Positions 8,076-63,694 are shown, counted from the stretch's first letter. The stretch: 63,694 nt of DNA from Minisyncoccota bacterium (GCA_041651055.1 JBAZJW010000005.1:1-63694); one strand, 5' to 3'. Numbers and translations are program-made. The notes: generated from the sequence alone by a model not told the origin.

Positions 8076-8210
8076 ATGACAACACAAGTTGGCGAGACTG
8101 CTTACAATCAAGACAGGCAGGTCATCGAACAGAAGACTCAGGAAGCCGTCCTGAGTCTCACTAAATCTTTATGTTCATCAAAGAATAACAAACGTTTTGG
8201 AGGAAACTAA
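8076..8210 (+). CDS. Hypothetical protein (44 aa)
   Basis: Hand-translated MTTQVGETAYNQDRQVIEQK.... It fills the gap before 8212. Confidence 0.35.
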   Translation: MTTQVGETAYNQDRQVIEQKTQEAVLSLTKSLCSSKNNKRFGGN

Positions 8211-8211
8211 A

Positions 8212-17081: not shown

Positions 17082-17082
17082 G

Positions 17083-18356: not shown

Positions 18357-18362
18357 TGAACA

Positions 18363-20375: not shown

Positions 20376-20386
20376 TATGATTCACC

Positions 20387-21913
20387 TCATTTATAACCTA
20401 GCCATGCACTCCATATTTTTGGTGTGGGATTGTCAGTATCACTCTGCAAGTTAAATCTTATTTTTATAGCTATTCCTTCCACTGTCGGAACTGTTAACGT
20501 ATTTAATCCAATACCTTGCCATGTGCTACCATTGTCAACGCTGAACTCAAACGTGCAAGAGTTATAATCTTGCCCATGTATCCTAAGTTCCACACCAGTT
20601 ATTACTGCATCACTATATTTTGTTATACTTGTTGCACTGCCAGATGATTGTCCAGTATCTAACATGAGTGTACTATTCAATTCTTGTGTATTAGTGTGCG
20701 TAAATTGTGACGAACTTTCTTCGAAGGTGTAACATATTGCATCTGTGATGGCATTAGGATTGTTGGAGGCTTGTATGTTGCCTGTTATCTTATCATCTCT
20801 TAATGAAATAATATCCCATAATTCAGTGCCATTACGTTCATAAGAAAGTGTAGTTACCCAATTGGCAGCACTAATATTGTGAGTGAACTCTTGCACTATA
20901 TGAAGTCCTGAAATGTCACACCTCGGGCATTCACAGTAAATGCTTTGTCCTGGACGAAGTGTTGGAAGTCCATGAAGTACTGTAAGTGTTCCTTTGGTAT
21001 CTGTTACGTTGGAACTTCCAAGCTTTAGACTAACATCAGTCTCAATTGCTTCCTGTGAATGAAGATTGTTATCATTGACTAATAGGTCTTTCTGCCAAAA
21101 ACTAGCTATATCTGTGCTATCTTTTTTACTTTTAGCATAATAAAAATTTCCAGCACTTTCAACCTTGTCGCCAGTCATTATGATATTATTACGACGTTCT
21201 AGAAGGTCTTCACCATAATTATTCACTGCCGCAAGGTTCTGTCCTATGACTACACTCTCAGCAGTATTTATTTCTTGAGTGAACGTATGTATATCGTAAT
21301 CAAAATCTAAGTAGCCATAGTACCCTGCTTTGTTCAATGCATCACTGAATATTTTTGCAGGTTTTGCCCAAGTGTAATCTCTATAAATTAATGTGGTCAT
21401 TCCAGTGCTCATGTTAGTAGTTGTAAGAATACTAGAGAACCAGTTAGTGACCATAGAAGATAATAACACATATACTGTCTGGCTCGTAACACTCTCAACA
21501 ATTAGCCTGTCTTGAACTTCTGGAGCTTCCCTGCCTTCAAGTACCATAAAATATCCGTTGTTAGCATCAAAGCTTTTGAAAGGTGCATCGATTTTTCCTC
21601 TGAATATTTGATTAGTTGCATCTGTAAAATCTGCATAAATGTCAATTCTTTCTCCGCCCGTAATGATAGAGTTCCACTTACCTTCTGTGTTATCAATGTC
21701 AACAGTGAAAGTTCCAAAGCCTCGATTAAGAGTTTTTCTTGTTACAGAAATATTAAGCACATGAGGACTTGTAGAGCTTGCGAGGTCGACTTGAGTTCCG
21801 CTATGAAGCGTAACTAATACTTTTAATTTGGGCGTATAAGTAGAACGTGGAGTAATTACAATAACTTCATCATCATGAAAACTTCCAGAATTAGGTCGTG
21901 ATAGTGTTGCCAT
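20387..21913 (-). CDS. Tail/baseplate structural protein (508 aa)
   Basis: Called from its position at the distal end of the tail module. No motif was quoted. Confidence 0.4.
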   Translation of the reverse strand: MATLSRPNSGSFHDDEVIVITPRSTYTPKLKVLVTLHSGTQVDLASSTSPHVLNISVTRKTLNRGFGTFTVDIDNTEGKWNSIITGGERIDIYADFTDATNQIFRGKIDAPFKSFDANNGYFMVLEGREAPEVQDRLIVESVTSQTVYVLLSSMVTNWFSSILTTTNMSTGMTTLIYRDYTWAKPAKIFSDALNKAGYYGYLDFDYDIHTFTQEINTAESVVIGQNLAAVNNYGEDLLERRNNIIMTGDKVESAGNFYYAKSKKDSTDIASFWQKDLLVNDNNLHSQEAIETDVSLKLGSSNVTDTKGTLTVLHGLPTLRPGQSIYCECPRCDISGLHIVQEFTHNISAANWVTTLSYERNGTELWDIISLRDDKITGNIQASNNPNAITDAICYTFEESSSQFTHTNTQELNSTLMLDTGQSSGSATSITKYSDAVITGVELRIHGQDYNSCTFEFSVDNGSTWQGIGLNTLTVPTVEGIAIKIRFNLQSDTDNPTPKIWSAWLGYK

Positions 21914-27900: not shown

Positions 27901-28095
27901 GAAATTATAAGCCTGATTAAAGAATCCTGTAACGTTGCTTGGTGTTCCGAGCTTCGTGTATGTTTTTCCTACGTCGGCAGTTAGAACTCCATTGGTAGCT
28001 GAGTAGTATTGTATTAGTCCATCTGTTAATGCTCCCATAACTGAACTCGACAACATAAAAACAACAATGAACCAAAATAAAATTTTAAATTTCAT
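21913..28095 (-). CDS. Giant (2060 aa) secreted LamG/concanavalin-like domain protein, extremely rich in N-x-S/T sequons (adhesin/fibre-like)
   Basis: N-terminal signal-like MKFKILFWFIVVFMLSSSVMGAL. LamG pattern ...TVSVWVNKHG...WNHILVIIDG...CKLYLNGV...FQGTIDEFAQWNRTLNATEISNMYN. Sequons occur throughout. Confidence 0.8.
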   Translation of the reverse strand: MKFKILFWFIVVFMLSSSVMGALTDGLIQYYSATNGVLTADVGKTYTKLGTPSNVTGFFNQAYNFTAIDQRFNHSANAQTTNTTVSVWVNKHGIGGWTTAGYNAIVASSSNGAWAAGDWAIMTRGTATENLTVNLNTGGGLFTYGSVLSNNSWNHILVIIDGTAGTCKLYLNGVLQSTLTDANIIRAWPTLNYLAIWSIRNNDWFQGTIDEFAQWNRTLNATEISNMYNSGAGFAYPFDYLFPTIDNSTYNLTSASSGQNSTAWRNGNEATSILTIDTTPTVTFNTIQNAYCRINKEDQNWTTMGTSRNCSTTGTNSHVCTLAAGDALVSSSDKLFIACIDGTLNVETESSTSGLLNITLGSIPEVTIISPENDTIANENIQWAYINATDNIYATLNCSLLINGTIYNTNDSVLNNTPTNISSNTTLSDGYYYFWVACINDGITGTSLNYSITKDTNAPYFENAKNTSNDTFKYNSSLITNITITDTIGNISYYIFASNISGIMTNSSSVINNTAASINVSVTSILNITHKPEVCWKFWANDSNFGHSNESEEYCIQMTDTLPVVTNVNITPTTAYYDTVLIPNYTITDVDEDAETDSYFTWFINDVYNSSGLANSTNITTLTNVRKDSMVIIQITPQNGTHNGTAINSSAIRILNSLAVVNTSRILPDPAYTNSSLTGYCNATDVDGDIIDWFYYEWFNDDGLNSSGSINYTSIGNYTYDNFDDSVVNTTLWGDAPVGTSTLSEGLNVLNSSVVNPGGDGASTILGGVKQLISFTTLSNAPDAINVTIKNMTVLAAAVLNSNSYAYTQISNGTDNICAMGGIALCSGTPGCSVQYLVDYIDLLIVINTTADTVYVYNNTDELLCADTLSGDIYIQTEQQADDGGSDGSGSTRVTFAEVNYTSKLPFQESVEYAINTISSQAVDTNWTFSCLASNITANSSWLNSSVVTVYPTNPILVSAPEFNLTTVYTNSYLGANTSYYNYYSRLGNITFFWYINDTYIFSESFNNTVAGTILNSSLDNSYFSKTDKINVSVQAIDELFSSPYNYSEQITVSNSVPNVTIVNMTNNTATTNNTLSVDFEADDIDSDILNCSIFVNGTNYGFNDSVDVSVYSTLVANSTIDDGQWAFWINCSDGTDSANSQNMTIIIDNNPPSLVINSPANETAYANTSYEVVFNYTASDAYSFGNCTLYINNNSNTTNTSSGNATFTLLLTTGTYYWYINCTDTSGNINYSAERILGLFTLVFKIEDYNTTKKWEMFTTPIINLSSDGYASTFCIDISLKDYGINYTCGTLPLYYNFTIPYVETTEFSTGVSEINITDNGTFEFNTKNWSELTGVTVDIYAYDTTLDTTLDSDNDNNTQVTFRGYLNNNTLVENRWYDNTTTLTDVDFTATSTYTTYIRLSSAASMQDNITFWVNATASNPIELDYLELWYNDSYFDDTNNGSYYSTSLPTFVFDDMTSDVSGRWNYNEGGEGIAEWDSNETIYTLSSATAYSDGSYIDTAQQYAHLNSKGLDFNTKTRVDIYYNMSCSAYGYESNGCWGNFGSGIGIASINLVTNAAGTLPNTEVISLSCYGSSSSTSSGVLSFRYNASDITQLYVYKDGVFLKTVANPGSGTNIKGYSFGYADGYGADCGFGGGTGVGYVYFYQINYSGAGINYSQTDNHWLDNQTSAEAFSDIILSSDEDIVNVYPDFSELQPAGSDVRLYVSADNGTNWQEATDESFLTFSNPGKYLRYKINMTNTQTELPVGMYYVDLQVSSDSVSDLGVKVGTNISYQFNVSGDLNNSTTPTVVTLDSDIFNNYLQSSTCNTTTTCDVPIIFDILSTSKGYLTFWNLTATGTLADVSLNYSSFNLSNCSTEDCNKSIAVNNSNTTIQFSDLRVKYRGTGNITITGHNDEYSESQTMMIYYSPFSVEFVPTGITYMLFNPMSSSQKNVSPHGQVMSRFKNLSIQNVSSSAFDHNIDLYLQTNATDGYINTTNMTNSTTMYIMNQTTKLASSTVVLNYSRQAFMQNVTNSSEYPVYILADFYNVSGRPYYAWWNWWTSYCSDSGDGYGGCVVID

Positions 28096-29111
28096 TGTTG
28101 TACCTCTAATTTATGAACAGGTAAAATATAACTTTTATTTATCCATTCTATTATCCCATTTTTACAAATTATTTGTTCGTCAAATATTTTACAGCACGTT
28201 TCACCACCACTAGAAGAACATGCACCATCACAATTACCATCAATACATGAATCACAAATAACCCCATCATGATTTTCAGAACACATATATCCCTGTTTTT
28301 TAAAGTCAACTGTTTTATTATTAACAGTTAATATTTCTGAACAATTTTGCTTTATTGATGATATTATTTTTATTTCATCACCAAGATATATAAGTTCATC
28401 TTCAATAATACTACCATTGTCAGTAGATTTATTTACTATTATGTGTTCATATTGTGGTATAGTTTCATTATAATATGTTGTCACACCGATGCAATTCTTT
28501 ATTATTTTTTTCTGTGGATTATTCATTTCTATGTTAAAAATTTCATCGTTAATAATAGGCTTGTACTTTATTGTAAGCTTATCCTCTCCAACTAACTGAC
28601 GTACTTTTGCATAATAAGCTCCATTTTGCCATATTATTCTTATATTATGACCAAAATTTTCAGGACTAATAGCATCTCTTGTTGCTTCAGTGAATCCTTC
28701 AAGATTAGAATATTCTACCTGCAATATTTTTCCTTTGCAGTTCAAGCATCTTATAATGCTGCTAAGGGAGACAAAGTCAACCTTGTCCAGCATAGGATTG
28801 AAAACATAAGTTTGCTGTACAGTAATATTTGAAGCGTAAGTAACATTTCTTATAAGATGAAATTCAGTTTCTGAAATATTCTCATAGCCATGGCTTCTTG
28901 ACTTTGCTGTCATGAGCTTTGAACCATTGTAAAGTTTGACAGTTTCTGTTGCTCCGAGTTCCCACGAAGAATCTTCCCAAACGTAAAGCTTTGTGTTCGT
29001 GTCACTAACAACTATCTTAGCACCTTCAGGAAGCATAATGTATATTGAGACACTAAGTATAGTTAAGATTAAAAATCCTATTGTTATTTTTGTTGTATTT
29101 CCCATGGTCAA
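28092..29111 (-). CDS. Membrane-anchored/secreted Cys-rich protein (339 aa)
   Basis: N-terminal hydrophobic ITIGFLILTILSVSIYIML. C-terminal CSENHDGVICDSCIDGNCDGACSSSGGETCC. Confidence 0.6.
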   Translation of the reverse strand: MTMGNTTKITIGFLILTILSVSIYIMLPEGAKIVVSDTNTKLYVWEDSSWELGATETVKLYNGSKLMTAKSRSHGYENISETEFHLIRNVTYASNITVQQTYVFNPMLDKVDFVSLSSIIRCLNCKGKILQVEYSNLEGFTEATRDAISPENFGHNIRIIWQNGAYYAKVRQLVGEDKLTIKYKPIINDEIFNIEMNNPQKKIIKNCIGVTTYYNETIPQYEHIIVNKSTDNGSIIEDELIYLGDEIKIISSIKQNCSEILTVNNKTVDFKKQGYMCSENHDGVICDSCIDGNCDGACSSSGGETCCKIFDEQIICKNGIIEWINKSYILPVHKLEVQQ

Positions 29112-29479
29112 TCATATTGGTCTTGGATAATCGTCATATTGTAGCGAAGATTAGTTACTGTTGCAGCAGTTTTTGAATCATCAAAAAATGTTAAGTCTTC
29201 AACAATATAATTGCCATTACGTTCTGAATTACCGTCAGTATAAGCATGTTTAAGACCATCTCGTAATGCTCGTAAATCAGTGCGTGCTGAATCAATAGTT
29301 GTTGCGCTGCCAATTATTATTCCACTGATAACAAATCTAAAGTCCCAAGCGTCAGCAAACACCTCGTTCATCACAAGTCTTTTTCCAAGTAATTGTTTTC
29401 GAGTAGCAGGCACTGATGTTTCTAAAATATTTTCAGCATAGATAGTTACGCCGCCGAATGTTATTGTTGTATATGCCAT
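29108..29479 (-). CDS. Small tail protein following the tape measure (123 aa)
   Basis: Called from position. ATGA-type overlaps on both sides. Confidence 0.45.
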   Translation of the reverse strand: MAYTTITFGGVTIYAENILETSVPATRKQLLGKRLVMNEVFADAWDFRFVISGIIIGSATTIDSARTDLRALRDGLKHAYTDGNSERNGNYIVEDLTFFDDSKTAATVTNLRYNMTIIQDQYD

Positions 29480-31188
29480 TATGCTACACCTGTCACTCTC
29501 TTAGATTTTGATGAATTGTCAGTGGTGTAATAATTGTTAGTGACATTTCCACTATGAAGTGCAGGGTTGTAACCACTTCTTTTTGCAGATTCTGTTTGTG
29601 TCATATAAGTCTGTGTGCCTATATCCCAAACAACATTGCTTTGACTAGGGTCTCCTGTACTACTTCCTGAGCCACCTTTGTATGAAACGCCACCACTGCT
29701 TCCTCTTGAACTCTTACTACCACCTGAGCCACCTGACATTGCAACTTGAGCCTTGACCATTGCCTCAACGACCTTTCTTGTTTGGCTGTCTAATTGTTCT
29801 AAGCAGTTGCTGTAGCTTTCTTGCGCAGTGGTTGCTTTTATGACTGCCTTGACGTCAGCGTCCTTAGATATTATTCCTTCTTGGTAAAGCACTGTCATTG
29901 ACTTGACAGTTTCTCCCATGAGATACTCATTGTCCATAAGGTTAATCTTGGCTTCCTCGCTTTTCTTTATTGTGCGAGTGTCCGAGTCTATGGCTTCGGT
30001 GTGCTGCGTTGTCACGTCAGTACCTGTACCTCCACCGACACTTCCGCCACCAATGGTTGCTGCTCCGTTGAGTCCAGGAATGGCATTGCCCGTTACTGCT
30101 CCACCTGCTGCTTTTTCTGCCTGAATCTGTCCGTACTCTGCAGCCGTCATGAGTTTTCCACCAAAAGAACTTCCGCCTACACGCATTGCGTCCTCAGCGG
30201 AATATCCTGCATTAATGTAATCATTTATGTTAGCCCTTTTTGCTGCACTCATCTTGATGTCAGCAAAACTATCCGCAGTGAAAACATCTTTGGCAAGTCC
30301 TATAACATTACCAAGTTTTGCTCCAAGGTCACCGACCTTGTCAATCACCCATCCTATTCCTGTGAGCATTCCTGATAATACTTTGCCAGCAGCCTGCCCC
30401 AATGCTATCCAATCATCTTTGTGTTCTATCAATACATCAGCCAACTCAGTTAGAGTGGGAATTAATTCATTGCCTACCTGCACTTTAAGGTCTGAGAATT
30501 GTTTGTTAACCTTGGCAAGTTTTACAGAAAGACTTTCCTCAAATACAAGTCCGTTGTCTTCAATTGTTTTCTTCATGCCTTCAAGAGTAGCTTGCAAGAA
30601 TGCTTCTTTCTTTTGAGTTTCAGTAAGTGCTGCTGCCACTGTGCCGTGAACATTTGCATAATTTTGGTATGCTGCTTCTGCGTCCACTATTATTCCCAAG
30701 TTATCTAGTATAAGTTTGCTTTGTCTACCAACACCTAACGTTATGTCCCCAACTGCTTCCGTTACTGACCTTCCAGTGAGCTGTCCAAGAATCGCTGCTC
30801 GCTCAAAAAATTCAGGAAGCTTGTTCTGTTCAATTCCTAACGCAAGTGCCTTGTTAGCACTGGACATAAGTTCAAAATCTGTGACTGTCTCATGAGTTGC
30901 GTTGTTTAAAGAAACTAACAAGTCGTCACTGTTCTGTGCCATCTTCTTGAACTGTGCTGTCATTACTTCTGCATTAGCAGCAGCCTTAACGCTGGAAACT
31001 CCGAAGGTAAAAAGTCCTGCAGCTGCTGCTGTCAGTGCAATTCCTCCAACCCTTGCAGCCATGCCAAGCTTGGTCATGCCAGTTTCTGCCCTGTTAAAAG
31101 TGTCCGAGAATTGGTCGTACGCCTTGATGACTATTCCAACAGTGGCTCCGCCTACAATACCACTCATTAACGAATCACCAAGTCCCAT
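29479..31188 (-). CDS. Tail tape measure protein
   Basis: 569 aa, helical and Ala/Gly-rich with hydrophobic segments and Gly/Ser tracts. It follows the frameshifted chaperone. Confidence 0.75.
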   Translation of the reverse strand: MGLGDSLMSGIVGGATVGIVIKAYDQFSDTFNRAETGMTKLGMAARVGGIALTAAAAGLFTFGVSSVKAAANAEVMTAQFKKMAQNSDDLLVSLNNATHETVTDFELMSSANKALALGIEQNKLPEFFERAAILGQLTGRSVTEAVGDITLGVGRQSKLILDNLGIIVDAEAAYQNYANVHGTVAAALTETQKKEAFLQATLEGMKKTIEDNGLVFEESLSVKLAKVNKQFSDLKVQVGNELIPTLTELADVLIEHKDDWIALGQAAGKVLSGMLTGIGWVIDKVGDLGAKLGNVIGLAKDVFTADSFADIKMSAAKRANINDYINAGYSAEDAMRVGGSSFGGKLMTAAEYGQIQAEKAAGGAVTGNAIPGLNGAATIGGGSVGGGTGTDVTTQHTEAIDSDTRTIKKSEEAKINLMDNEYLMGETVKSMTVLYQEGIISKDADVKAVIKATTAQESYSNCLEQLDSQTRKVVEAMVKAQVAMSGGSGGSKSSRGSSGGVSYKGGSGSSTGDPSQSNVVWDIGTQTYMTQTESAKRSGYNPALHSGNVTNNYYTTDNSSKSKRVTGVA

Positions 31189-47499: not shown

Positions 47500-48159
47500 T
47501 CATTCTGCTACAATCCAAAAATCTGTTTCTCCATCTATCACTTCAATGACCTTCCAACCACTTTCTTTAAAGTACCAAATGGCTTCGTCTTTAGTCCAGA
47601 AGTGCAAAGAACAATTATTGTCACTGTTCGTGATGTATGCTTTCGCATAATTCTTAAATTCTCCCCTATCTTTCAATAAGTCTGGGAACTGAAACATTCC
47701 CCTGCCGCAAGGAGCTAAGTAGTGCCTCAAGTTTTTGAGGATATAATAAACCTTGTACTTGTTAACATGCTGGAGCACGATGTGACTGTACATTTTCGTA
47801 ATGCAGTTTAGTGCAAGTACTGACTCACCTATTCCAGTGCAGTGGATAATGCTGACGTTGTCAATGCCTTCCAGGTACTTCTTGCTCAGTGACACCATTG
47901 AGTTGCTCACGTCTAGTCCCATTACTTGCTTGCAGTCTTTAGAAATGTGTTTGGCTAGTCTTCCAATTCCTGCGCCGTAATCAAGAACAATGTCGTCCTT
48001 GTTTATTTTCAAAGTTTTCGTTATGAACTCTGCGTCCTTATTTGTGTTCTTGTTAAAATCATCTTCAGTGCGTGCTCCCCATACTATCTTACTCATGGCG
48101 TCTTGAGATTCGTTGATGTTCTTCCAGAATATTTCTTCAGGGTCGTAGTTGGTCATCAT
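47500..48159 (-). CDS. Class I SAM-dependent methyltransferase
   Basis: Motif I VLDYGAGIGRL. Confidence 0.7.
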   Translation of the reverse strand: MMTNYDPEEIFWKNINESQDAMSKIVWGARTEDDFNKNTNKDAEFITKTLKINKDDIVLDYGAGIGRLAKHISKDCKQVMGLDVSNSMVSLSKKYLEGIDNVSIIHCTGIGESVLALNCITKMYSHIVLQHVNKYKVYYILKNLRHYLAPCGRGMFQFPDLLKDRGEFKNYAKAYITNSDNNCSLHFWTKDEAIWYFKESGWKVIEVIDGETDFWIVAE

Positions 48160-48380
48160 TTCTTTTTACCCCCAGAAGTTTTTATTGGTATGAACGATAG
48201 TGTCACAGTGGTATTACTAAAAGGATGCGTTATGGACACTGTCCTGTTAGGCATTGGCGTAGTATACGGCATGGGCGTTGTTGTAGGACAGAATGGTACT
48301 GGCTTGTAATTCTTGCACCTAAATCTAAACTCACAGTACTCGCAGTTCTTTTTTTGTTCGAAGCATGGTGGAGTTATCAT
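48156..48380 (-). CDS. Small Cys/Pro/Thr-rich protein (74 aa)
   Basis: CFEQKKNCEYCEFRFRC. ATGA overlap with the methyltransferase. Confidence 0.45.
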   Translation of the reverse strand: MITPPCFEQKKNCEYCEFRFRCKNYKPVPFCPTTTPMPYTTPMPNRTVSITHPFSNTTVTLSFIPIKTSGGKKK

Positions 48381-48397: not shown

Positions 48398-48480
48398 TAG
48401 CAGGGGGAAGATTCGAACTTCCGCACTCTTTCGAGTCCAGGTCATGAGCCTAGCGGGATTGACCACTACCCGACCCTGCT
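48398..48480 (-). tRNA. tRNA, anticodon CAU (Met/Ile2-type), with A1:U72 pair and an atypical 14-nt extra arm
   Basis: Hand-folded. Acceptor AGCAGGG/CCCTGCT. D stem GGG/CCC with loop ...AGTGGT.... Anticodon stem CTAGG/CCTGG with loop CTCATGA (anticodon at 48444..48446). Extra arm ACTC-GAAA-GAGT. T arm GGAAG-TTCGAAT-CTTCC. Discriminator A, no encoded CCA. Confidence 0.75.
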
Positions 48481-48498: not shown

Positions 48499-49098
48499 TT
48501 AGTTGGTTGACGGGTTGAACGCAGGCGTCTGCATCTTTGTTCCAACAGCCATCTTTTTGTGTTCTTCACCAACAACCGAAAGATTCTCAGCTGAAGACGA
48601 AGCACTTATCTTCTTCTTACGCTCCTCAACGAACTTCTGTTCCTGAGCGAGTTCTGCTTCGTTCATGTCACTCTGGGCTATGCTGACAGTGCACCCGTGC
48701 TTGTACGGCTTGCAACTGTAGCTAGTATTCACGACTAGCTCGAACCACACGTCACCGCCTTCACGCCTGCGCATGTTCTTGCGCTCAACACCAACGACTT
48801 CGAAGTAGTCCTTGTGCCCGTACTTGGCAAGGTCGAATGATGCAACAAGGTCTAAGAAGGGCTTCTCGGTTTCTTTGAAGTCACGATTGTAGCGCAGCTT
48901 GAGTTCGTTGTACAGTGTCTGCTTCTTCATCTTGAACTCTTCCAGTGCGCACTTCCTGCAGAACGGCAGGTGCTTCTTCACGTACTCCTGAGCAAATGTG
49001 TTGCACTTGTCCATGAAAATGTCTTCCGCTGTTACTTGTCCTGGCTGATGTCCTTCTTCTTCCTGCTCCGCAGGAGTCATTGCTCGTTCAATCCTCAT
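48499..49098 (-). CDS. Hypothetical protein (199 aa)
   Basis: ATG lies behind GAGGTGG. Confidence 0.6.
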   Translation of the reverse strand: MRIERAMTPAEQEEEGHQPGQVTAEDIFMDKCNTFAQEYVKKHLPFCRKCALEEFKMKKQTLYNELKLRYNRDFKETEKPFLDLVASFDLAKYGHKDYFEVVGVERKNMRRREGGDVWFELVVNTSYSCKPYKHGCTVSIAQSDMNEAELAQEQKFVEERKKKISASSSAENLSVVGEEHKKMAVGTKMQTPAFNPSTN

Positions 49099-49492
49099 TT
49101 TCTTCCACCTCTGGTTTGTTTACTATTAGCCCCATGTCTTCTAGCTTGTCCACTATCTCGTAGTAGTTCTTCTCTTCTGGAACGGACACTGTTATCGTCT
49201 TGGGCAACTGAGTTGGTGGTGCGACCTTCACGCCGTCCTTGAGCTGTTTCTCGCAGACTTCTATGGTGAAGTTTATTTCTTTCATCTTGTTCTCTGCTGC
49301 CTTGAGCCTCTTGTTGTATTCTCTGCGCTGCACTTCAACATCTACAGCAATTCCTTCACTAAGCATTAGCTCTGCTTGGTGCTTGACGAACAACATCTCA
49401 TCAAGTTCTTGCTTAGTAGATATAAGCCTGGTCTTTATTATTTGCTGCTCCTCAGCATCCAAGGGGCGCATTTCAGGTTTTTCTTCACTCAT
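49088..49492 (-). CDS. Hypothetical coiled-coil protein
   Basis: ATG 49492 lies behind GGAGGA. The track start at 49510 has no SD. Confidence 0.55.
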   Translation of the reverse strand: MSEEKPEMRPLDAEEQQIIKTRLISTKQELDEMLFVKHQAELMLSEGIAVDVEVQRREYNKRLKAAENKMKEINFTIEVCEKQLKDGVKVAPPTQLPKTITVSVPEEKNYYEIVDKLEDMGLIVNKPEVEENED

Positions 49493-49823
49493 TCTTCTCA
49501 TCCTCCACATCTACTTCTTCACAGTTCTTGTCCAGGTCAGTCTTGACAGAAATCTTAACTTTGTAGTCTTCAAAACTGTCCATATCCTCAATGAGCACGT
49601 CTTCGTTGCCATTAAAGAAATGTTCTTCAAAGTCTCCAGTATCAAAAAATCCTTCTATATGTTGAACAAGTGCTTTATGCATATCTATTGCATACCCAGC
49701 CCTAAATACTCTAAGCTCAAACTTCTTTTCTGAAGTTTCAAAGTTTTCATCACTTTGTCCTTCTTCTGGGAAGACTTCATAATTGTCTTCACTCTCAACT
49801 ACAATCGTTATTATACTTTTCAT
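49485..49823 (-). CDS. Highly acidic protein (112 aa; 33 D/E vs 11 K/R by hand count)
   Basis: ATG 49823 lies behind GGAGGG. Confidence 0.6.
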   Translation of the reverse strand: MKSIITIVVESEDNYEVFPEEGQSDENFETSEKKFELRVFRAGYAIDMHKALVQHIEGFFDTGDFEEHFFNGNEDVLIEDMDSFEDYKVKISVKTDLDKNCEEVDVEDEKNE

Positions 49824-50787
49824 TTTTATTCCCTCCAAGTTTGTAATGTTGACAACAGTCCACTGTATTGCACGGGCTTCGCATGTTGTCGAAACTAGCA
49901 GCTTCTAACTGGCCAATAAGTGACCTTCTCGCCACGCAATCGTCCAGTTCGCTCAGTGACGTACTGTCAATATGACCTAATACTAGCTCATTCTTGCTGT
50001 CCAGGCAACAAGCGTACCATTTCCCATCTGGATTCAGGAACGCTTCTGTTTTCACACGATTTATTTGTGGACACTGCTTGCTCTCATTCTTGAGCTTATG
50101 TTCTAAGAACTTGTCACGCTCCGCCCACAAGCATGGAATGATTCCTTGCACAACGTCCTTGTCGTTTATCAAGAACTTGATGCAGTTAATGGTGAGTTGC
50201 GTATAGTCTTGTCCTTCAGTGTAAGAATGTGCAACCATTCCCATTTTCTGATTAAGTACTGTCGCTGCAACATTCTTGTACATTACTGGGTCAATGACGT
50301 TCACTTCAATGGTGACTTCTCGTGTCTTGTGAAGTGCTGTCCTGAGCATGAGGAAGCCAGTGAATTGTTCCCATGCTTTGTAGAAGTCCGCATTCTTTGC
50401 GAGCTTATACTGTTCTGGGATTATGCTGTCGATATTGCACACGACCTTGTCCACTAGCTTGTCGTTAAGAATGGTATTCCACTGTTCTGTCGTACTGGAC
50501 AAGAAGTTGGTGAATAGCACAACAGTAACGTCTGGCAGGTAGTAGCGCACTGCTTTAAGGAATGCTATTATTTCGGCGTGCAGGAAGGCGTCACCATTCT
50601 CGCCTATTATTACTTGGTCTATTTTCTTGTTGTGCCTCTGATTGTAAATTATTGCTTGCCTTAGAACAATTTGAAGCGTGTCTTTACTCATGAATGTTTC
50701 TTCATTACATGCTCCCCTGTCTTTAGGACAGAATATGCAGCTTGCACTGCACTTGCTCGTCAAGCTCAGGTTGAGGCTTCGTATCAT
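49795..50787 (-). CDS. Radical SAM enzyme with Cys-rich C-terminal (SPASM/twitch-like) extension
   Basis: CX3CX2C cluster LTSKCSASCIFCP. C-terminal CPQ...GKWYACC...CNTVDCC. Confidence 0.7.
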   Translation of the reverse strand: MIRSLNLSLTSKCSASCIFCPKDRGACNEETFMSKDTLQIVLRQAIIYNQRHNKKIDQVIIGENGDAFLHAEIIAFLKAVRYYLPDVTVVLFTNFLSSTTEQWNTILNDKLVDKVVCNIDSIIPEQYKLAKNADFYKAWEQFTGFLMLRTALHKTREVTIEVNVIDPVMYKNVAATVLNQKMGMVAHSYTEGQDYTQLTINCIKFLINDKDVVQGIIPCLWAERDKFLEHKLKNESKQCPQINRVKTEAFLNPDGKWYACCLDSKNELVLGHIDSTSLSELDDCVARRSLIGQLEAASFDNMRSPCNTVDCCQHYKLGGNKNEKYNNDCS

Positions 50788-51005
50788 AGTTTCAGCTCTG
50801 TCTGGTCTATGACTATTGGCTCGTTTTGTTCTATGCTGAGTATTTTCTCCAGTTCGCCTTCCAGTCCTACTAGCCTGGAGACCTTGTACAATCGCTGCAC
50901 GTCCACTAACTGATAGTGTTGCCCGTCATAAAGTGGTGTGTGCGTTTCCACGTTTATGAACTTGTTGTTGTACCCGTCATATTCTGCTCGTATTGTCATA
51001 GTCAC
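50784..51005 (-). CDS. Hypothetical protein (about 71-73 aa)
   Basis: Track start is GTG 51005. An ATG at 50999 is also possible. It overlaps the radical SAM start. Confidence 0.5.
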   Translation of the reverse strand: MTMTIRAEYDGYNNKFINVETHTPLYDGQHYQLVDVQRLYKVSRLVGLEGELEKILSIEQNEPIVIDQTELKL

Positions 51006-51160
51006 ACCTCTCCTGCTTCAAAAGAAATTCTCAATCTTCCACGCTTGCTTCCTTTCTCAATGGTTAGTGTTGAAGGGATTATTCTTTTTGTTGCTGCTTC
51101 AACTTGTGCAACAGCAGAACTGTATAGTCCTATACTTGCCAAATCATCTGAAAAACTCAT
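51002..51160 (-). CDS. Small ORF (52 aa) between methyltransferase and radical SAM genes
   Basis: Hand-translated MSFSDDLASIGLYSSAVAQVEAATKRIIPSTLTIEKGSKRGRLRISFEAGEV. ATGA overlap with the methyltransferase stop. Confidence 0.45.
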   Translation of the reverse strand: MSFSDDLASIGLYSSAVAQVEAATKRIIPSTLTIEKGSKRGRLRISFEAGEV

Positions 51161-51753
51161 TTGTTAATCACCCTCAACAATGTTATTAACGACGCAAGCC
51201 TGTCCTCGAATATTATATTCTTGACGTATGTTTGGTGAACAACTTCTAAGCCCAAATGGTACGCCCACTTTCGCATCTGCCACATTGTAGGCACGTTCAC
51301 GTGTTCCTTGTCGCAACTGAACAACTGGTACTCGCTGTATGCTGGAGTGGCAAGGAAGATGTACCCGTTCAGCTTGGCCACTCGTTTGAGTTCTCTGAGC
51401 ACGTCCATGGGTCGCTCGGTGTGTTCCAGGGCGTGAGAGCAGAACACAAAGTTTATGCTTTCTCCAGCGAACGGAAGGTCGTTCATGTCACCTTTCATTA
51501 CACTGTTGCAGTTTGGGTGAATGTCAATTCCCATCCAGTTAAATCCTTGCTTAATGAAGAATGGTCGTGTTGTGTCGTCCCTGCAGCCAACGTCCAGAAT
51601 GGTTGCCTCGTTGTTCTTGTCTTTGACAATTACTTTGCGGAAGTACCTGAGCACATCGAGCAAGTGACCTTCTGCCTTGCATATTTGAAGGTCTTGCTTT
51701 TCTTCCTCAGTGTACTCTGCTGGAAAAACAATAGTGTTTTCTTTGGTTATCAT
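51157..51753 (-). CDS. Class I SAM-dependent methyltransferase
   Basis: ILDVGCRDD...GIDI...FVFCSHALEH (Methyltransf_11-like). Confidence 0.65.
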   Translation of the reverse strand: MITKENTIVFPAEYTEEEKQDLQICKAEGHLLDVLRYFRKVIVKDKNNEATILDVGCRDDTTRPFFIKQGFNWMGIDIHPNCNSVMKGDMNDLPFAGESINFVFCSHALEHTERPMDVLRELKRVAKLNGYIFLATPAYSEYQLFSCDKEHVNVPTMWQMRKWAYHLGLEVVHQTYVKNIIFEDRLASLITLLRVINK

Positions 51754-53162: not shown

Positions 53163-53408
53163 ATGGAAACAAAAGCAATCCTCATAAAAATTCCAGAAAG
53201 TGAGCACAGCTTCCTGCGTTCTAGAAACTACAACGTGAGTGCTCTGCTGCGCACTCTTGTCTCCAGCTTCGTGATTGAGCAGAATCAAAAAGAAATTATT
53301 GAAGCAGAAAAAAGAAGAAAAGAGGAATTGATGTATGCTACCTACACCAAGCCTGAACCCAAGCTTAATACCGAACCTGAACCTGAAAAACAATTGCCAA
53401 CTGACTGA
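53163..53408 (+). CDS. Ribbon-helix-helix-like DNA-binding protein (origin-proximal)
   Basis: METKAILIKIPESEHSFLRSRNYNVSALLRTLV fits a strand-helix-helix pattern. Confidence 0.45.
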   Translation: METKAILIKIPESEHSFLRSRNYNVSALLRTLVSSFVIEQNQKEIIEAEKRRKEELMYATYTKPEPKLNTEPEPEKQLPTD

Positions 53409-56124
53409 GCCTCGTCACTTGATAAGCGAAATCAGGAAGTTCTATGACTACTTTAGTCCGCACGAACTTTGGTGCATGCGGTACAAGCAAAAAGAAAACC
53501 CTCACATAATACAAGTTCATTCCTTCGAAGAATTTCTCAGGGCAATAGCTAAGTACAACAACAAGGAAGAAATGTGCTGCGTGTACGCTGGAGTGAACCC
53601 GTACAAAACTTGGCGCTTGAACGAGAACGTCACGCACTTGAAACAACTTTTCTTCGACATTGACTGCACCACTCAGGAAGAGTTCGACGAGATTCAGAAA
53701 CACGCTGAAGAGCTAGGAATGAGGTGGAGCAAGCACATCAACTCAGGGCGTGGCAAGTACCTTCTGTTCCCAGTTACGCCCACTGAGATAACGGACACTA
53801 ATCGTGACGACATTTACAACCTGACAGCGAGCCTAGTGGATTACTTTAATGAGAAGTTCAAGGCACTAGACGCAAGGTGCAAGGACGTCAGTCGCATCAG
53901 TCGTGTTTGGGGCACTGTGCATTACAAGAATGTCATTGAGCACAAAGGCAGCCCCTTGCAGTGTCAAATAATAGCGGAGCAAGAAGTTAGCCCTGAGCAG
54001 ATGTCCAAGAACTTAGAGGTCGCTCAGGGCATTGCAGCAGGGCGCAAGCACGAGTACAAGCTATTCAACGACAACACAGTTGGCGAGTGTTACGCTTGCG
54101 ACAGTGTGCTAGAAAACCCGCTTCCACCAACAGTTAACAACGGGGAGAGCAGCACGGGATTCAACGACAGGCTAGGAAAGAACCTTGCCATTTACGCTTG
54201 CAGACTGCACGGGCGCAACGGACTAGAAATGGTCAGGAAGTGCTACTCAAGCAGGGACAAGAATCCGAAGGAAGCTGACGGGTGGTTCAAAAAAGCAGAG
54301 GGCGACCCTGACTTTAAGCTGAACTGTTACGAAATAAAAAATTATCTTGAGGAAAATTATCCCACAGTGTTCAGCACTCAGTGCAAGCGTTGCATGAGAG
54401 AAAAAAGGAATAGAATAATTTACACTGACGAGCCTGACGCAATGCGTGAGCTGAAAGAAAAGTACAAGGGCAGGCTGAAGTTTTTTATTGCTGATAAGGA
54501 AATGTTTGACGGCATTGTAAGCCCGAGTGAGCAAGGTGACGCCAAGCAACTGTACATCATCGGAAACATTTATCAGCGCAACAACGGAAGGGCAAACCGC
54601 AACTTCCAGCGAGTGCTGAACATGGAAGACATTGAGAATAATAATTCTAATTTTGAAATGTTTTACTTCGGCGAGCCACTCCCTGGAAGGAACAGGGAAG
54701 TTGTGAGGTACGAGCGTGCAGGATTCTACCGTTACGAACTGAAAGAAGGTGACCGCAATTATATTTTGCTTAGTGAGAAGAAGATTCCGTACGGAGAGAA
54801 CATCATCAGGGGAATGATTACCGAAGTGAACGGCAAGTACACCATTGCAGAAGGCGTCAGCCTTAGAGGAACTCAGCAGGTAGTATTCGTGTTTGACCAC
54901 AAGCCCAAGCTGGCAGAGGTCAACAATGATGACGAACTGTTCAAGCTCGTGGACTTCACTGAGCAAGAACTAATCGACACCATTTACTCAAAGCTGGACG
55001 GTAACAGGCTGGTGACTTTTAGGCAGCCAGCATTCATCAATACTTTGGTACTCTCGTGGCTTTTCAGTGGCAAGAAGAATTATCCGCTGCACGTCAACAT
55101 AGTAGGCCAACCTCACTGCGGAAAAACAGAACTCTTAGAAAGGCTTAGTGAGTTGATGAACGAGGAGATTATGGACTGCGGTGGCAGCACTATTAAAAGT
55201 TTGATTCCTAGTTTTCACGGGATTGCTCCAGAAATTGGTGCACTGTTCAGGAGCAGGAGAGTGTGCATGCTTGATGAGCTCATCAACATGCTGGCCAGGA
55301 CTGGAAAGAAAAGTGAGGAAACCAGTGACATGTTCATAACGGCCAATAATATATTGGAGCATAAGAAGAATCACAAGTTCGGCTCAGGCAAGGGTAACAT
55401 CATGATGAGCATGCACAGCAAGGTCATCGCAGTTAACAATCCAGCAACGGGCAAGACCATAAAAGAAACGTTCAAGATAATGCCAGAGGCATTCATGGAC
55501 AGGTTCCTGCCCGTAAGGTTCAGTTCCAATTACAAGTTGTACGTGAGCAGTGGCAACTACGTTGAAGACAAAGCCAAAACCATAAAAAAGTTCACGTTCC
55601 TCAGCATAACGGACTATCTTAACAATTTCATGGTTGACATTGACAAGAAGCGTTACGACGAGTGCCTTAAAGAAATCAAGCCACTGGTTCCAGAGGAGAT
55701 TCAATTCTTTTTTTCCAGCAGGACGTCGTCCCACCACATGCAACTGATTCTTGACGGCATTATCAAGGTCAGGTGCCTGCTCGAAAAAGACAGTTCGTGG
55801 GTAGCAACTGAGCGTGATTACGCAAAGTTCACGAACTGGCTTCGAGACTGGGTGAGGTGGTGGTGGGACGACAAGCTCCCGCAAGGCAAGACCATTACCA
55901 GAGTGCTTAATGACGAGCAAAAAATCATTCTGGAACTCGTGGGCAATGGACTAGGAAGAATAAAACTTTTCAAGCTACTGGAAGAGCGCAACATTGAAGC
56001 CAAGTACAACCTAAAATTCCTTTACGACAATGGTGTGCTAAGCAATGACGAGAACAACATCTTCCCACTCATCAACACTAACGAGAGTGAAGTCAGCATT
56101 GAAGACATGGACGTGAGAATATGA
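53335..56124 (+). CDS. Archaeo-eukaryotic primase (PrimPol) domain fused to an SF3 (D5-like) helicase
   Basis: AEP motifs LFFDIDC, SGRGKYLLF and RVWGTVHYK. Walker A VGQPHCGKT and Walker B CMLDEL. The start is uncertain (ATG 53335 overlaps the upstream gene; TTG 53419 is possible). Confidence 0.8.
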   Translation: MLPTPSLNPSLIPNLNLKNNCQLTEPRHLISEIRKFYDYFSPHELWCMRYKQKENPHIIQVHSFEEFLRAIAKYNNKEEMCCVYAGVNPYKTWRLNENVTHLKQLFFDIDCTTQEEFDEIQKHAEELGMRWSKHINSGRGKYLLFPVTPTEITDTNRDDIYNLTASLVDYFNEKFKALDARCKDVSRISRVWGTVHYKNVIEHKGSPLQCQIIAEQEVSPEQMSKNLEVAQGIAAGRKHEYKLFNDNTVGECYACDSVLENPLPPTVNNGESSTGFNDRLGKNLAIYACRLHGRNGLEMVRKCYSSRDKNPKEADGWFKKAEGDPDFKLNCYEIKNYLEENYPTVFSTQCKRCMREKRNRIIYTDEPDAMRELKEKYKGRLKFFIADKEMFDGIVSPSEQGDAKQLYIIGNIYQRNNGRANRNFQRVLNMEDIENNNSNFEMFYFGEPLPGRNREVVRYERAGFYRYELKEGDRNYILLSEKKIPYGENIIRGMITEVNGKYTIAEGVSLRGTQQVVFVFDHKPKLAEVNNDDELFKLVDFTEQELIDTIYSKLDGNRLVTFRQPAFINTLVLSWLFSGKKNYPLHVNIVGQPHCGKTELLERLSELMNEEIMDCGGSTIKSLIPSFHGIAPEIGALFRSRRVCMLDELINMLARTGKKSEETSDMFITANNILEHKKNHKFGSGKGNIMMSMHSKVIAVNNPATGKTIKETFKIMPEAFMDRFLPVRFSSNYKLYVSSGNYVEDKAKTIKKFTFLSITDYLNNFMVDIDKKRYDECLKEIKPLVPEEIQFFFSSRTSSHHMQLILDGIIKVRCLLEKDSSWVATERDYAKFTNWLRDWVRWWWDDKLPQGKTITRVLNDEQKIILELVGNGLGRIKLFKLLEERNIEAKYNLKFLYDNGVLSNDENNIFPLINTNESEVSIEDMDVRI

Positions 56125-59399: not shown

Positions 59400-60284
59400 A
59401 TGTGGATAGAAAAATACAGACCTCACAAGTTTGAGGACGTGCAAGGCTTAGACCCTGAACTTCCCAAGCTGGTAAATGATGACATGCCTCACCTCATGTT
59501 CGTGGGCAAGGCAGGCTCAGGCAAGACCACTACAGCACGAATCATTGTTGACGTGCTAGGCTGCGACTGCTTGCGCTTGAATGCTTCTGATGAGCGAGGA
59601 ATCGACGTAATCAGGGACAAGGTGAAAGACTACGCTAGGACTAGGAGCAGCAACGGAAAGTTCAAGATAGTCTTCCTGGACGAAGCGGACTTCCTGACCA
59701 AGGAAGCTCAGATGATTCTTAGAGGAGTCATTGAAGCGTACCACACAAACTGCAGGTTCATCCTGACGGGCAACTACATCACTAAGTTCGACGACGCTAT
59801 CAAGAGCCGTTGCAAGCAGTTCAGCTTCAACACACAAAGCAATGAGCAAGTGGCAGCGTATCTTGACAAAATATGCTGTAACGAAAACGTATGCGCTACA
59901 CGCGATGCACTCGAGAAACTCGCTGCCAAGTACAACCCTGACATCAGGACAATGCTGAATGAGCTAGAGACACTGGCCAAGAAAGGCACGAAAATAATGC
60001 CTTCAATGATTAGTGAGGAAGACGACAGGGTTGCCGAACTTGTGAAGCTGCTGCAGTCAGGGCAGATGAGCAAGGCAAAGAAGTGGATACTGGACAGCTC
60101 GTTCGACATTCACTACGTGCTGAACCTGCTCAACACTTACTCGTGGAATGCTGCTTGGGACACGCCTAAGAAGTTGAAGTTCTGGGAAGCCCTGGGCGAA
60201 ACGGAGTTCAGGATGGGACTGAGCGTTGACGAGGAAGTGCAGTTGTCGAGTGGTCTTGTTAGAATGTACAAGGCGCTGATGTAA
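59400..60284 (+). CDS. rfc: Replication factor C small-subunit homologue (clamp loader AAA+)
   Basis: [16 protein letters not shown], Walker [10 protein letters not shown], Walker [11 protein letters not shown], sensor SRC in AIKSRC. Confidence 0.85.
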
Positions 60285-62229: not shown

Positions 62230-62577
62230 ATGGGATTGTTTGACGACAAGACGATTGAGAAAATGCGTGAAGACAAGTTCAACAAAGCAATAGCGGAAGG
62301 CATGAGTTTGAGGGACGCTGAAATGGCATTCCACACCAGTGATGAGATACCACAGTCCGCAATCAAGGGCGTGAATCCGCAGCCGTTGAAGATTTTGTTC
62401 TACTTCAAAACAGCTCCAGAAGTGGAACTCGTGAAGAGGCACTTCAACGTTCTTGAGTACGTTGAACTCAACACTAGCGACACAGAGTTGTTGCTTAGAC
62501 TTTTACTTGCACTGGAGACGGGAATAATAAAGGAGGATGACTTGCCATGCTTGAAGAAATCAGAAAATCAGCTCTAA
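62230..62577 (+). CDS. Hypothetical protein (115 aa)
   Basis: Track ORF. It overlaps the radical SAM start by 31 nt. Confidence 0.55.
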   Translation: MGLFDDKTIEKMREDKFNKAIAEGMSLRDAEMAFHTSDEIPQSAIKGVNPQPLKILFYFKTAPEVELVKRHFNVLEYVELNTSDTELLLRLLLALETGIIKEDDLPCLKKSENQL

Positions 62578-63694
62578 GGTGGGCTGAGAACAACCAGGAC
62601 AAGACCTGCACGAAAGGTTGGTACAACAGTCCTAGAATTAGCAGTGAGTTCATGGACTGCTCAACCCCGTTCAGCTTTGACCTGTACAACTTCTGCTCAT
62701 TCGGTTGCTTGTACTGTTTCGCATACTACAGCAAGGCAAACAATCCGAGCGTGGCGCACAACAACAAAGCAATGGAACTGAAGAGCGTGAACGTGGACAA
62801 GATACTGGACATTTTCGAAGGCAAGTTCCCGAACAATATTTACTACAAGCACTTCATCAAGAACCGCAAGGTCATCCACATTGGCGGACTGGCGGACAAC
62901 TTCTGCAACTTCGAGCGCAAGAACAAGCGAGGACTGCGCATAATCGAGTACCTGCTCAAGACGGGCTACCCAACAATCATCAGCACCAAAGGTGACTTCC
63001 TCAGCATTCCCGAGTACGCTGAGATGTTCGAGAAGTACAAGGACACTGCCAAGATGGCAATTCAGTTCAGCATAATAACTAACAAGCCAGAACTTGCAGC
63101 GCAGATTGAAGTAGGAGCGCCTTCGCCTGTACGACGCATGGAGATTCTCAAGCAGATGCATGCTTGGGGTTACTGGACAATATTGCGCCTCAGACCTTTC
63201 CTCATAGGCGTGAGTGATAGAGACCTGGACGGGTTCCTGCAGTGCATGAACACTTACGACATTGACGCAATCAGCACTGAGTTCTACTGCTTAGATATGA
63301 GGGCGAAGGAAGAAGACAAGAAGCGTTACAAGTGGATGAGTGATGTTTGCGGATTCGACATCATTGACTATTACGAGAAGTTGTCGCCTGCTAGTAGAGG
63401 CACTTACCGCAGGCTAAACAGGAACGTAAAAGAAAAGTACGTGAAGAAAATGTACAAGTTCTGCGTTGAGAATGGAAAGCACTTTGCCATAAGCGACCCC
63501 GACTTTAAAGAACTCAACATGAGTGGCTCTTGCTGTGGTCTCCCTGATGACTGGAACTGGTGCAGGAACCAGATGACGAACCTGCTCAGGCTTGCAAGGA
63601 AGAAGTACATGGAAACTGGTGAGGCGATAGTCACGTATGATGACGTTGTCATGGACGCCATTGAAGAACTGTGGAAGAAAGAAAACAAGTTCTT
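62547..63694 (+). CDS. Radical SAM enzyme, SplB/spore-photoproduct-lyase-like (N-terminal 382 codons; runs off the window end and continues at 135..360)
   Basis: ATG 62547 lies behind AGGAGG. It carries a CX3CX2C cluster CSFGCLYC in ...FDLYNFCSFGCLYCFAYY.... The frame is open to the window end and in phase with 13..360 through the repeat (63573 = 13). It is absent from the ORF track because it has no stop inside the window. Confidence 0.75.
   Translation, partial: MLEEIRKSALRWAENNQDKTCTKGWYNSPRISSEFMDCSTPFSFDLYNFCSFGCLYCFAYYSKANNPSVAHNNKAMELKSVNVDKILDIFEGKFPNNIYYKHFIKNRKVIHIGGLADNFCNFERKNKRGLRIIEYLLKTGYPTIISTKGDFLSIPEYAEMFEKYKDTAKMAIQFSIITNKPELAAQIEVGAPSPVRRMEILKQMHAWGYWTILRLRPFLIGVSDRDLDGFLQCMNTYDIDAISTEFYCLDMRAKEEDKKRYKWMSDVCGFDIIDYYEKLSPASRGTYRRLNRNVKEKYVKKMYKFCVENGKHFAISDPDFKELNMSGSCCGLPDDWNWCRNQMTNLLRLARKKYMETGEAIVTYDDVVMDAIEELWKKENKF
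63569..63694. repeat. Right copy of 126-bp terminal direct repeat (= 9..134)
   Basis: Same as the left copy. The offset of 63,560 nt gives the genome period. Confidence 0.9.

Follow-up and report, generated by a model that had tools for sequence, protein, structure and literature searches.

What does a radical S-adenosylmethionine (SAM) enzyme do in a virus when its gene sits among methyltransferase genes and small open reading frames (ORFs)? The question is raised by a contig of 63,694 nucleotides filed under a Minisyncoccota bacterium (GCA_041651055.1 JBAZJW010000005.1:1-63694; the whole of this stretch is called the window below), the minus strand of which carries a 330-aa radical SAM enzyme (rSAM) accompanied by two class I methyltransferases, MT1 and MT2 (table 1). 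An earlier note, made from the sequence of the window, had proposed either a peptide-modification or a small-molecule pathway encoded by a virus. Here, the evidence favors the second alternative, with a sugar as the small molecule, over the first, for which neither a conserved precursor gene nor a recognition element for peptides made by the ribosome and modified after translation (RRE and RiPPs, respectively) was found: MT1, rSAM, and MT2 may constitute a virus-borne sugar-tailoring cassette, a reading to which we give a probability of roughly 0.45.

The gene calls from which the proposal started hold. The ORFs, the motifs of rSAM (KCSASCIFCP near the N-terminus; CPQ, GKWYACC, and CNTVDCC near the C-terminus), and the class I methyltransferase MT1 all lie where they had been placed on the minus strand, and MT1, a 52-aa ORF, a 73-aa ORF, and rSAM are linked by overlapping stop and start codons, each junction being a 4-nt overlap (ATGA, GTGA, and ATGA, successively). 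The second methyltransferase that had been noticed further along, MT2, is confirmed by Pfam as class I and moreover turns out to be a member of a conserved unit. Indeed, in clade relatives recovered from metagenomes, whose terminase large subunit (TerL) is 77-82% identical to that of the window, genes follow the order p175, p62, MT1, a variable slot, rSAM, p140, p199, a second slot, MT2, TerL, and portal. Where their sequence is long enough, all of these relatives retain rSAM and MT2, and MT1 is present wherever the contig reaches: MT1 orthologues (54-67% identical) lie directly upstream of rSAM in loci L001/L025 and L011/L029/L030, and MT2 orthologues (55-67%) are found in every clade relative, always downstream of rSAM. 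TerL-based searches for long relatives of the clade returned short contigs only. The same order recurs in the 17-kb locus L028 (MT1-like, 42%; rSAM, 32%; MT2-like, 39%), which has neither p140 nor p199, otherwise carries different genes, among them metallophosphatases and a CCA-adding-type enzyme, and has no terminase nearby. As the order is kept both within the clade and in the unrelated L028, MT1, rSAM, and MT2 appear to travel together and likely form a functional unit. We found no description of a conserved viral cassette of a methyltransferase, a twitch-type rSAM, and a methyltransferase in the literature searched; the superfamily and the twitch architecture are already known, and it is the subfamily that is uncharacterized.

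With regard to the enzyme itself, its CX3CX2C motif (C13-X3-C17-X2-C20) and a partial TIM-barrel core recognized by profile and fold place it in the radical SAM superfamily. In an alignment of the window protein with 17 homologues, this motif is present in all 17 full-length homologues, P0007 being N-terminally truncated. The Pfam Radical_SAM model (PF04055) stays below its gathering score in the window protein (15.8 vs. 29.5 bits) and is carried by most homologues, and the SPASM model exceeds its own (23.8 vs. 21.5 bits) over model positions 3-42 of 67 only. Toward the C-terminus, C239, G255, C260, C261, C306, and C312 are invariant and C311 is variable, the cysteines being compared across 18 homologues; C239-X15-G255-X4-C260 matches the first half of the SPASM/twitch motif in its canonical form (CX9-15GX4C), and the CX2CX5CX3C block of the full seven-Cys SPASM pattern is absent from both the enzyme and the homologue alignment. 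Since five invariant C-terminal cysteines fit one auxiliary [4Fe-4S] cluster with one cysteine to spare, rSAM is predicted to carry a twitch-type C-terminal domain with a single auxiliary cluster. On this basis, the SPASM/twitch-like label of the earlier note stands for a twitch-type Fe-S domain and falls for a full SPASM domain, and the conservation of the C-terminal cysteines, on which its proposal had been made to depend, is upheld.

The closest solved structures point to carbohydrates. A single-sequence search of rSAM against the PDB was uninformative, and a profile of the family retrieved BtrN as best solved relative (E=4.7e-9), with both the core and the C-terminal domain aligned. An AlphaFold2 (AF2) model of rSAM (pLDDT 87, pTM 0.88) matches many radical SAM structures at a Foldseek probability of 1.00, and Foldseek against the PDB ranks BtrN first (2.8e-10) and DesII second (1.5e-9). 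BtrN is the archetypal twitch radical SAM enzyme, and both BtrN and DesII act on carbohydrates. Among curated NCBIfam models, MoaA, viperin, anSME, HxsC, and spiro-SPASM were rejected as identities for rSAM, scoring 15-30 bits against cut-offs of 180-510; viperin-like synthesis of chain terminators and a QueE/7-deazaguanine role were likewise set aside on scores far below the curated cut-offs (for viperin, QueE, MoaA, and anSME, 15-30 bits at best vs. 180-441). The earlier remark that rSAM resembles neither viperin nor QueE thus finds support, and no housekeeping family fits the enzyme, no curated cut-off being approached.

The gene neighborhoods of the family point the same way. This family is rare and unnamed: a profile search at E<=1e-10 gathered 95 family proteins, all with E<1e-50, and 185,579 species-representative genomes contained 23 family loci, all in metagenome-assembled genomes of uncultured lineages that include Saccharibacteria, Omnitrophota, Scalindua, Planctomycetes, Nitrospira, Verrucomicrobia, Thermoplasmatota, Iainarchaeum, and Nanoarchaeota; a tblastn search of rSAM against 50,697 phage records gave no match. 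Neighborhoods were read in a first sample of long contigs and in a second, less selected sample of 12 further species genomes (four genes on either side); in all, 21 cellular or viral contexts were counted. On the long contigs, except for a conjugative element of Shinella, rSAM lies in glycan loci with NeuB, CMP-sugar synthetase, DegT, Wzz, Rml-like genes, flippases, and glycosyltransferases (GTs) of families GT1, GT2, GT10, and GT17, and its immediate neighbor is usually a methyltransferase, the family of which varies (Methyltransf_23/11 or FkbM-type Methyltransf_21). An adjacent methyltransferase thus accompanies NeuB, CMP-sugar synthetase, DegT, and Wzz in an Elusimicrobia locus; Rml-like genes, a flippase, and GTs in Bacteriovoracaceae and one relative; and a carbamoyltransferase, an epimerase, and a GT in a Diapherotrites locus. 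FkbM-type methyltransferase genes overlap rSAM in a Nanoarchaeota locus (with GT17, GT10, and GT4) and on a JGI contig (with a flippase and GT2s). Two unrelated viruses also belong here, one (L012) with a GT2-TPR protein, rSAM, a GT2-methyltransferase fusion, and a capsule-type GT, the other (L018, 62 kb) with a P22-type portal, a GT9 heptosyltransferase, a class I methyltransferase, an rSAM fusion, and a hexapeptide acyltransferase.

In the sample of 12 genomes, the 70 neighbors comprise 13 methyltransferases, about 12 GTs, and three radical SAM proteins; counted by locus, glycan genes occur in six of the 12 and an adjacent methyltransferase in four, and neither occurs in four loci, two of which are shorter than 4 kb. 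Overall, about 14 of the 21 contexts are glycan-linked and about 11 have an adjacent methyltransferase, which is a strong enrichment and no rule. It is most likely, judging from these comparisons, that the virus lineage acquired its enzyme from a family whose cellular members mostly sit in glycan loci beside methyltransferases. As a separate observation on L018, its rSAM homologue (7014-8930) has an additional domain fused to its N-terminus, some 330 aa long and without Pfam match, and the fusion is flanked by the methyltransferase and the GT9 on one side and by the acyltransferase on the other.

The window virus may also have somewhere to send a tailored sugar. Its genome encodes, in all, four predicted GTs, three class I methyltransferases, and one sugar-phosphate nucleotidyltransferase, hence the combination of GTs with sugar-activating and tailoring genes that characterizes phage-encoded glycosylation, and a cassette on the plus strand brings most of these genes together (table 1). 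The nucleotidyltransferase of this cassette is RfaE-II/TagD-like (rfaE_dom_II, 3e-20; glycerol-3-P cytidylyltransferase, 5e-13; both NCBIfam). If the trio were a sugar-tailoring cassette, the [4Fe-4S] cluster held by CX3CX2C would reductively cleave SAM, and the resulting 5'-deoxyadenosyl radical would remove a hydrogen from one of the carbinol carbons in a sugar, which would most likely be nucleotide-activated or else belong to a glycan already. An electron could then pass to the single auxiliary cluster (C239, C260, and C306 plus C261 or C312) and leave a keto-sugar, as in BtrN or DesII; alternatively, the spare invariant cysteine could return a hydrogen to the opposite face and yield an epimer, as in NeoN or HygY. 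Methylation of this same sugar, or of its substituents, would fall to MT1 and MT2, and the product would feed the viral GTs, decorating virion proteins or the host envelope. More tentatively, we consider it possible that the trio is a mobile viral cassette making a previously undescribed sugar, radically oxidized or epimerized, then methylated and installed by viral GTs on the virion, the host envelope, or hypermodified DNA; given the RfaE-II/TagD-like nucleotidyltransferase, such a sugar might be derived from heptose or glycerol.

Several observations weigh against a sugar substrate. The substrate class is assigned by guilt by association, as the rSAM family has no characterized member. In the fold ranking, RiPP maturases (SuiB, SkfB, and ChlB) come close behind BtrN and DesII, as do viperins, anSME, and MoaA, so that fold alone cannot settle the substrate; TM-scores are modest, at 0.5-0.7. 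The trio and the GT cassette are some 26 kb apart and on opposite strands, the 17 kb of L028 contain no GT, and a tRNA gene inside the module as well as the CCA-adding-type enzyme of L028 would also agree with a target that is RNA or a nucleotide. Some seven of the 21 contexts lack glycan genes, namely a conjugative element of Shinella, a Planctomycete PDH locus, Omnitrophota ComEA/ComEC loci, two short contigs, L013, and L016. The first of these (L019, 8001-9850; Shinella sp.) carries a relaxase, a type IV secretion coupling protein, and McrBC; here, the family member, the only one from a named genus, is accompanied by another radical SAM protein, of smaller size, and by JmjC-like genes, a context for which sugar tailoring does not account. 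Neither do the methyltransferases decide the matter. MT1 has a minimal class I fold (AF2 pLDDT 93) whose nearest structures have no assigned function and whose characterized matches include the sugar O-methyltransferases AtmM and RebM and also RNA and small-molecule methyltransferases, so that its fold search does not discriminate between substrate classes. MT2 has nearest relatives that methylate amines, its best solved ones being phosphoethanolamine N-methyltransferases (3e-13) and the protein N-terminal methyltransferase NTMT1, and it matches a DNA methyltransferase model moderately.

Some of these observations also bear on the leading alternative, which we nonetheless hold to be unlikely: the trio would make or install a modified nucleotide or base, in viral DNA as an extra step of thymidine hypermodification or in tRNA/rRNA, the twitch cluster binding a nucleotide as in MoaA and MT1 and MT2 methylating the base or an appended amine. 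The genome does encode an ADDT (amino-acid:DNA transferase), a P-loop nucleotide kinase, a GATase-like protein, and a GNAT protein, the N-terminus of rSAM has weak MoaA matches, and some distant viral homologues adjoin gp32, ribonucleotide reductase, HNH, or 2-oxoglutarate oxygenase genes; the tRNA-Met gene of the module, the CCA-adding-type enzyme, and the amine-methylating relatives of MT2 are in keeping with it as well. Besides, phage GT cassettes can glycosylate DNA (bioRxiv 10.1101/2023.12.21.572611), so that even a sugar product could end on DNA. The DNA methyltransferase model in question is the PADLOC model mad2 (1.5e-14), which represents the predicted N6-DNA methyltransferase of MADS (bioRxiv 10.1101/2023.03.30.534895); however, neither MT1 and MT2 nor any of the orthologues aligned with them has the catalytic (D/N/S)PP(Y/F/W) motif of amino-DNA methyltransferases, and the match is therefore judged to reflect a shared SAM-binding fold. 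The hypermodification genes, moreover, belong to the other arm, at a distance of about 12 kb, and come with a spore photoproduct lyase (SPL)-like radical SAM protein of their own, the class to which the characterized DNA-modification enzyme M6 gp53 belongs (PMC8989533); as the DNA pathway already has a radical SAM enzyme of the expected class, a DNA role for the twitch enzyme is weakened. Finally, cellular members of the family mostly lie in glycan loci without DNA-modification genes, and the MoaA, QueE, and viperin models remain far below their cut-offs.

That the trio modifies virion or other viral proteins without any dedicated precursor, for instance through anSME-like oxidation, epimerization, or C-methylation by rSAM, with MT2 as an N-terminal or lysine methylase, appears improbable to us. 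Such a role would agree with the position of the module, which abuts packaging and structural genes just upstream of terminase and portal in the clade and adjoins the portal in L018, with the alignment of MT2 to NTMT1 over most of its length and its additional Pfam match to Methyltransf_PK, and with the structural closeness of SPASM/twitch enzymes acting on proteins or peptides. It sits poorly, however, with L028, where the trio is not beside structural genes, with the cellular homologues, which lie in glycan loci and not beside candidate protein substrates, with the anSME models (18 bits vs. cut-offs of about 350-440), and with an enzyme that has no RRE or peptide-binding domain.

There remain the small ORFs in the slot between MT1 and rSAM, which the earlier note had put forward as candidate substrates or partner proteins. 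The 52-aa ORF does exist as described and is doubtful as a gene, since it shows no coding signal (a score of -0.016 in a codon-usage log-odds test that gives 0.36 +/- 0.12 for genuine stretches of 60 codons and -0.72 for off-frame ones) and is outscored by one frame of the opposite strand. The 73-aa ORF has a weak coding signal (0.115), and its more likely start is the ATG at 50999, preceded at 7 nt by a GGAGAGG resembling a Shine-Dalgarno sequence, which gives the 71 aa also called in the public protein collection. Neither contains a cysteine or matches Pfam, NCBIfam, PHROG, or PADLOC models; none of the related loci holds a homologue of the 52-aa ORF, and the 73-aa ORF, missing from L001, L002, L011, and L028, found only itself when 1.84 billion representative proteins were searched exhaustively with HMMER. 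Absence from relatives is thus what was found for both, an outcome that had been named in advance as speaking against the proposal. The slot is empty in L001/L025, where the MT1 orthologue directly overlaps the start of rSAM, and holds an unrelated basic, Cys-rich 74-aa ORF in L011/L029/L030, an unrelated hydrophobic 35-aa ORF in L002, and an unrelated 57-aa ORF in L028, with no similarity in any pairwise comparison of these ORFs. No protein of the module has a PqqD match at E<=0.1 (Pfam), no RRE domain or protein was found there, and rSAM has no room for an N-terminal RRE, as its CX3CX2C motif begins at residue 13.

That rSAM matures the 52-aa and/or ~72-aa product as a RiPP, with a methyltransferase tailoring the peptide, can be called largely refuted, for if the small ORFs are translationally coupled between MT1 and rSAM, if L011, L002, and L028 also have a small ORF there, and if RiPP maturation is common among SPASM/twitch enzymes, the slot ORFs are mutually unrelated or missing, one is an ORFan and the other lacks coding signal, no RRE accompanies them, and what adjoins the cellular homologues is methyltransferases and GTs and no small conserved ORF. 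The slot is best seen, from these comparisons, as a hotspot for lineage-specific inserts, and the 52- and 73-aa ORFs as presumably devoid of a conserved role. A caution follows for other loci: small ORFs beside a SPASM/twitch enzyme are no evidence of a RiPP unless they are conserved.

Table 1. Features of the window around the MT1-rSAM-MT2 trio, and two further gene clusters of the same genome.
Feature	Position	Strand	Remarks
MT1, class I SAM-dependent methyltransferase, 198 aa	51157-51753	-	First gene of the conserved trio; Pfam Methyltransf_23/11
52-aa ORF, variable slot	51002-51160	-	Window-specific; outside the conserved system; doubtful as gene
73-aa ORF (GTG start), variable slot	50784-51005	-	Window-specific ORFan; outside the conserved system
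rSAM, radical SAM enzyme, 330 aa, predicted twitch-type auxiliary Fe-S domain	49795-50787	-	Putative catalytic core of the cassette
Very acidic ORF, window-specific insert	49485-49838	-	Probably 112 aa from the ATG at 49823; pI (isoelectric point) 4.2
p140, clade-conserved protein of unknown function, between rSAM and MT2	49088-49510	-	Orthologues 42-67%
p199, clade-conserved protein of unknown function, invariant Cys pairs	48499-49098	-	Orthologues 52-60%
tRNA-Met (CAT) gene within the module, between p199 and the 74-aa ORF	48398-48480	-	ARAGORN
74-aa ORF	48156-48380		Absent from relatives
MT2, class I SAM-dependent methyltransferase, 219 aa	47500-48159	-	Third gene of the conserved trio
Glycosylation cassette: GT4, GT2, class I methyltransferase, GT2, nucleotidyltransferase, GT4	14600-19457	+	Pfam, NCBIfam
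Thymidine-hypermodification-type cluster	62547-63694 and 13-3105, across the window ends	+	

Among the other genes of the module, the acidic ORF (33 Asp+Glu in its 112 aa) overlaps the 3' end of rSAM by about 29 nt, has no homologue among the related loci compared, and is absent in L001, L002, L011, and L026, in which a p140 orthologue directly follows rSAM; its composition is reminiscent of DNA-mimic anti-restriction proteins. The p140 protein, for which these same four loci have orthologues and L028 does not, matches no Pfam or PHROG model and is a possible packaging protein. Orthologues of p199 occur in all clade relatives and are absent from the L028 cassette; p199 has no relative in the PDB or Pfam. 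PHROGs contain no family for rSAM, the small ORFs, p140, p199, or p175, and PADLOC assigns the module to no defense system. A scan for promoters and terminators gave no useful signal, and would be inapplicable if the host were archaeal.

As for the genome as a whole, the last 120 nt of the window (63575-63694) repeat positions 15-134, which indicates that the contig was circularly assembled or is terminally redundant and that the radical SAM ORF at its right end continues into the ORF at 13-360. The window is a near-complete genome of a tailed virus, circularly assembled, and this virus was found only in a landfill metagenome. Among isolates, its TerL is nearest to those of Halogranum tailed virus 1 and of Thermus phages (about 31% identity), and for replication it encodes, among others, a family B polymerase and an RFC-like clamp loader; together, these features suggest a deep-branching, possibly archaeal virus. 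The rightward arm is headed by a 929-aa protein without Pfam match (53335-56124, plus strand), probably a primase-helicase; the observation on these replication genes also covers 59400-60284 (plus strand).

The hypermodification-type cluster comprises the SPL-like radical SAM protein (PA0069/Rv2578c-like), the P-loop nucleotide kinase (Ploopntkinase3), the GATase-like protein (PurF/GlmS N-terminal type), the ADDT (E=1e-21), and the GNAT protein, followed by PolB. From this gene set, the viral DNA is predicted to contain a hypermodified thymidine that derives from an amino acid and is possibly acetylated or amidated. Within the glycosylation cassette, which converges on the end of the structural arm, the first GT2 has a weak SunS-like match. 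Facing this cassette from the distal end of the structural arm is a transglutaminase-core protein (19746-20375, minus strand; cysteine protease or transglutaminase fold). A low-GC island on the minus strand (20000-30000; 32-35% vs. ~44% elsewhere) includes, especially at 21913-28095, a 2060-aa protein with an N-terminal ConA-like lectin domain (Laminin_G_3) and tail-type neighbors, and is probably a recently exchanged host-recognition module.

Few carbohydrate-acting radical SAM enzymes are known, almost entirely from antibiotic pathways. The family described here appears to carry such chemistry into cell-surface glycan loci of uncultured bacteria and archaea, and thence into viruses. We found no specific report, in the literature searched, of a characterized radical SAM enzyme in O-antigen, capsule, or archaeal-virus glycosylation. 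If the window trio were indeed a sugar-tailoring cassette, it would add radical chemistry to the known virus-encoded glycosylation enzymes, include the first virus-encoded radical SAM sugar-tailoring enzyme, give a first functional handle on a rare family of uncultured bacteria and archaea (candidate phyla radiation, DPANN, Omnitrophota, Planctomycetes, and others), and offer a compact three-gene system in which to define the activity of this family.

It remains to situate this system among known ones. M6 gp53, the SPL-like isomerase of thymidine hypermodification, is likewise a phage radical SAM enzyme in a genome with an aGPT-Pplase/ADDT-type transferase and a nucleotide kinase (PMC8989533). 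Its role, however, fits the other radical SAM protein of the window, which is adjacent to the ADDT and kinase genes, and not the twitch enzyme, which is not an SPL-like protein clustered with a 5-HMUDK kinase and an aGPT-Pplase/ADDT. Mycobacteriophage operons that combine an O-methyltransferase with tandem GTs, and that attach glycans to proteins of the capsid and the tail tube (PMC11600133, citing Freeman et al. 2023), resemble the window virus in associating phage methyltransferase and GT genes in the building of a methylated glycan. No radical SAM gene figures in that account of these operons, whereas in the window virus the rSAM trio and the GT cassette stand apart and the glycan is predicted from the genes.

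DesII (TDP-4-amino-4,6-dideoxy-D-glucose deaminase/dehydrogenase; PDB 8HZV) acts on a nucleotide-activated deoxysugar, the type of substrate to which Rml-like and NDP-sugar genes in the neighborhoods of cellular homologues point. Unlike the window enzyme, it is about 480 aa long and without auxiliary cluster, and the two share 11% identity with no sequence-level match. NeoN and HygY are twitch radical SAM sugar epimerases with a single auxiliary cluster and a catalytic cysteine that returns the hydrogen, and act on aminoglycoside pseudo-oligosaccharides. The window family likewise has one invariant cysteine more than the four that a cluster needs, and C261 or C312 could, by analogy, be the hydrogen donor.

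The closest comparison is with BtrN (2-deoxy-scyllo-inosamine dehydrogenase of the butirosin pathway; PDB 4M7T/4M7S), the top solved relative, with a TM-score of 0.72 on the length of BtrN. The two enzymes share about 13% identity, and the window enzyme is some 80 residues longer, with extra helices between the core and the predicted twitch domain; a fourth ligand would not be at the position of the BtrN CX2C, the window family having instead an invariant CC pair and C312, and this family is found in glycan loci and viruses, whereas BtrN belongs to an aminoglycoside cluster. In the profile alignment, C260 and C306 nevertheless align with two cysteines of BtrN, which we take to be the auxiliary-cluster ligands C188 and C235. 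Like BtrN, moreover, rSAM has its CX3CX2C motif at the extreme N-terminus, no RRE, and what is predicted to be a single short C-terminal Fe-S domain, and like BtrN it comes from a family associated with carbohydrate pathways.

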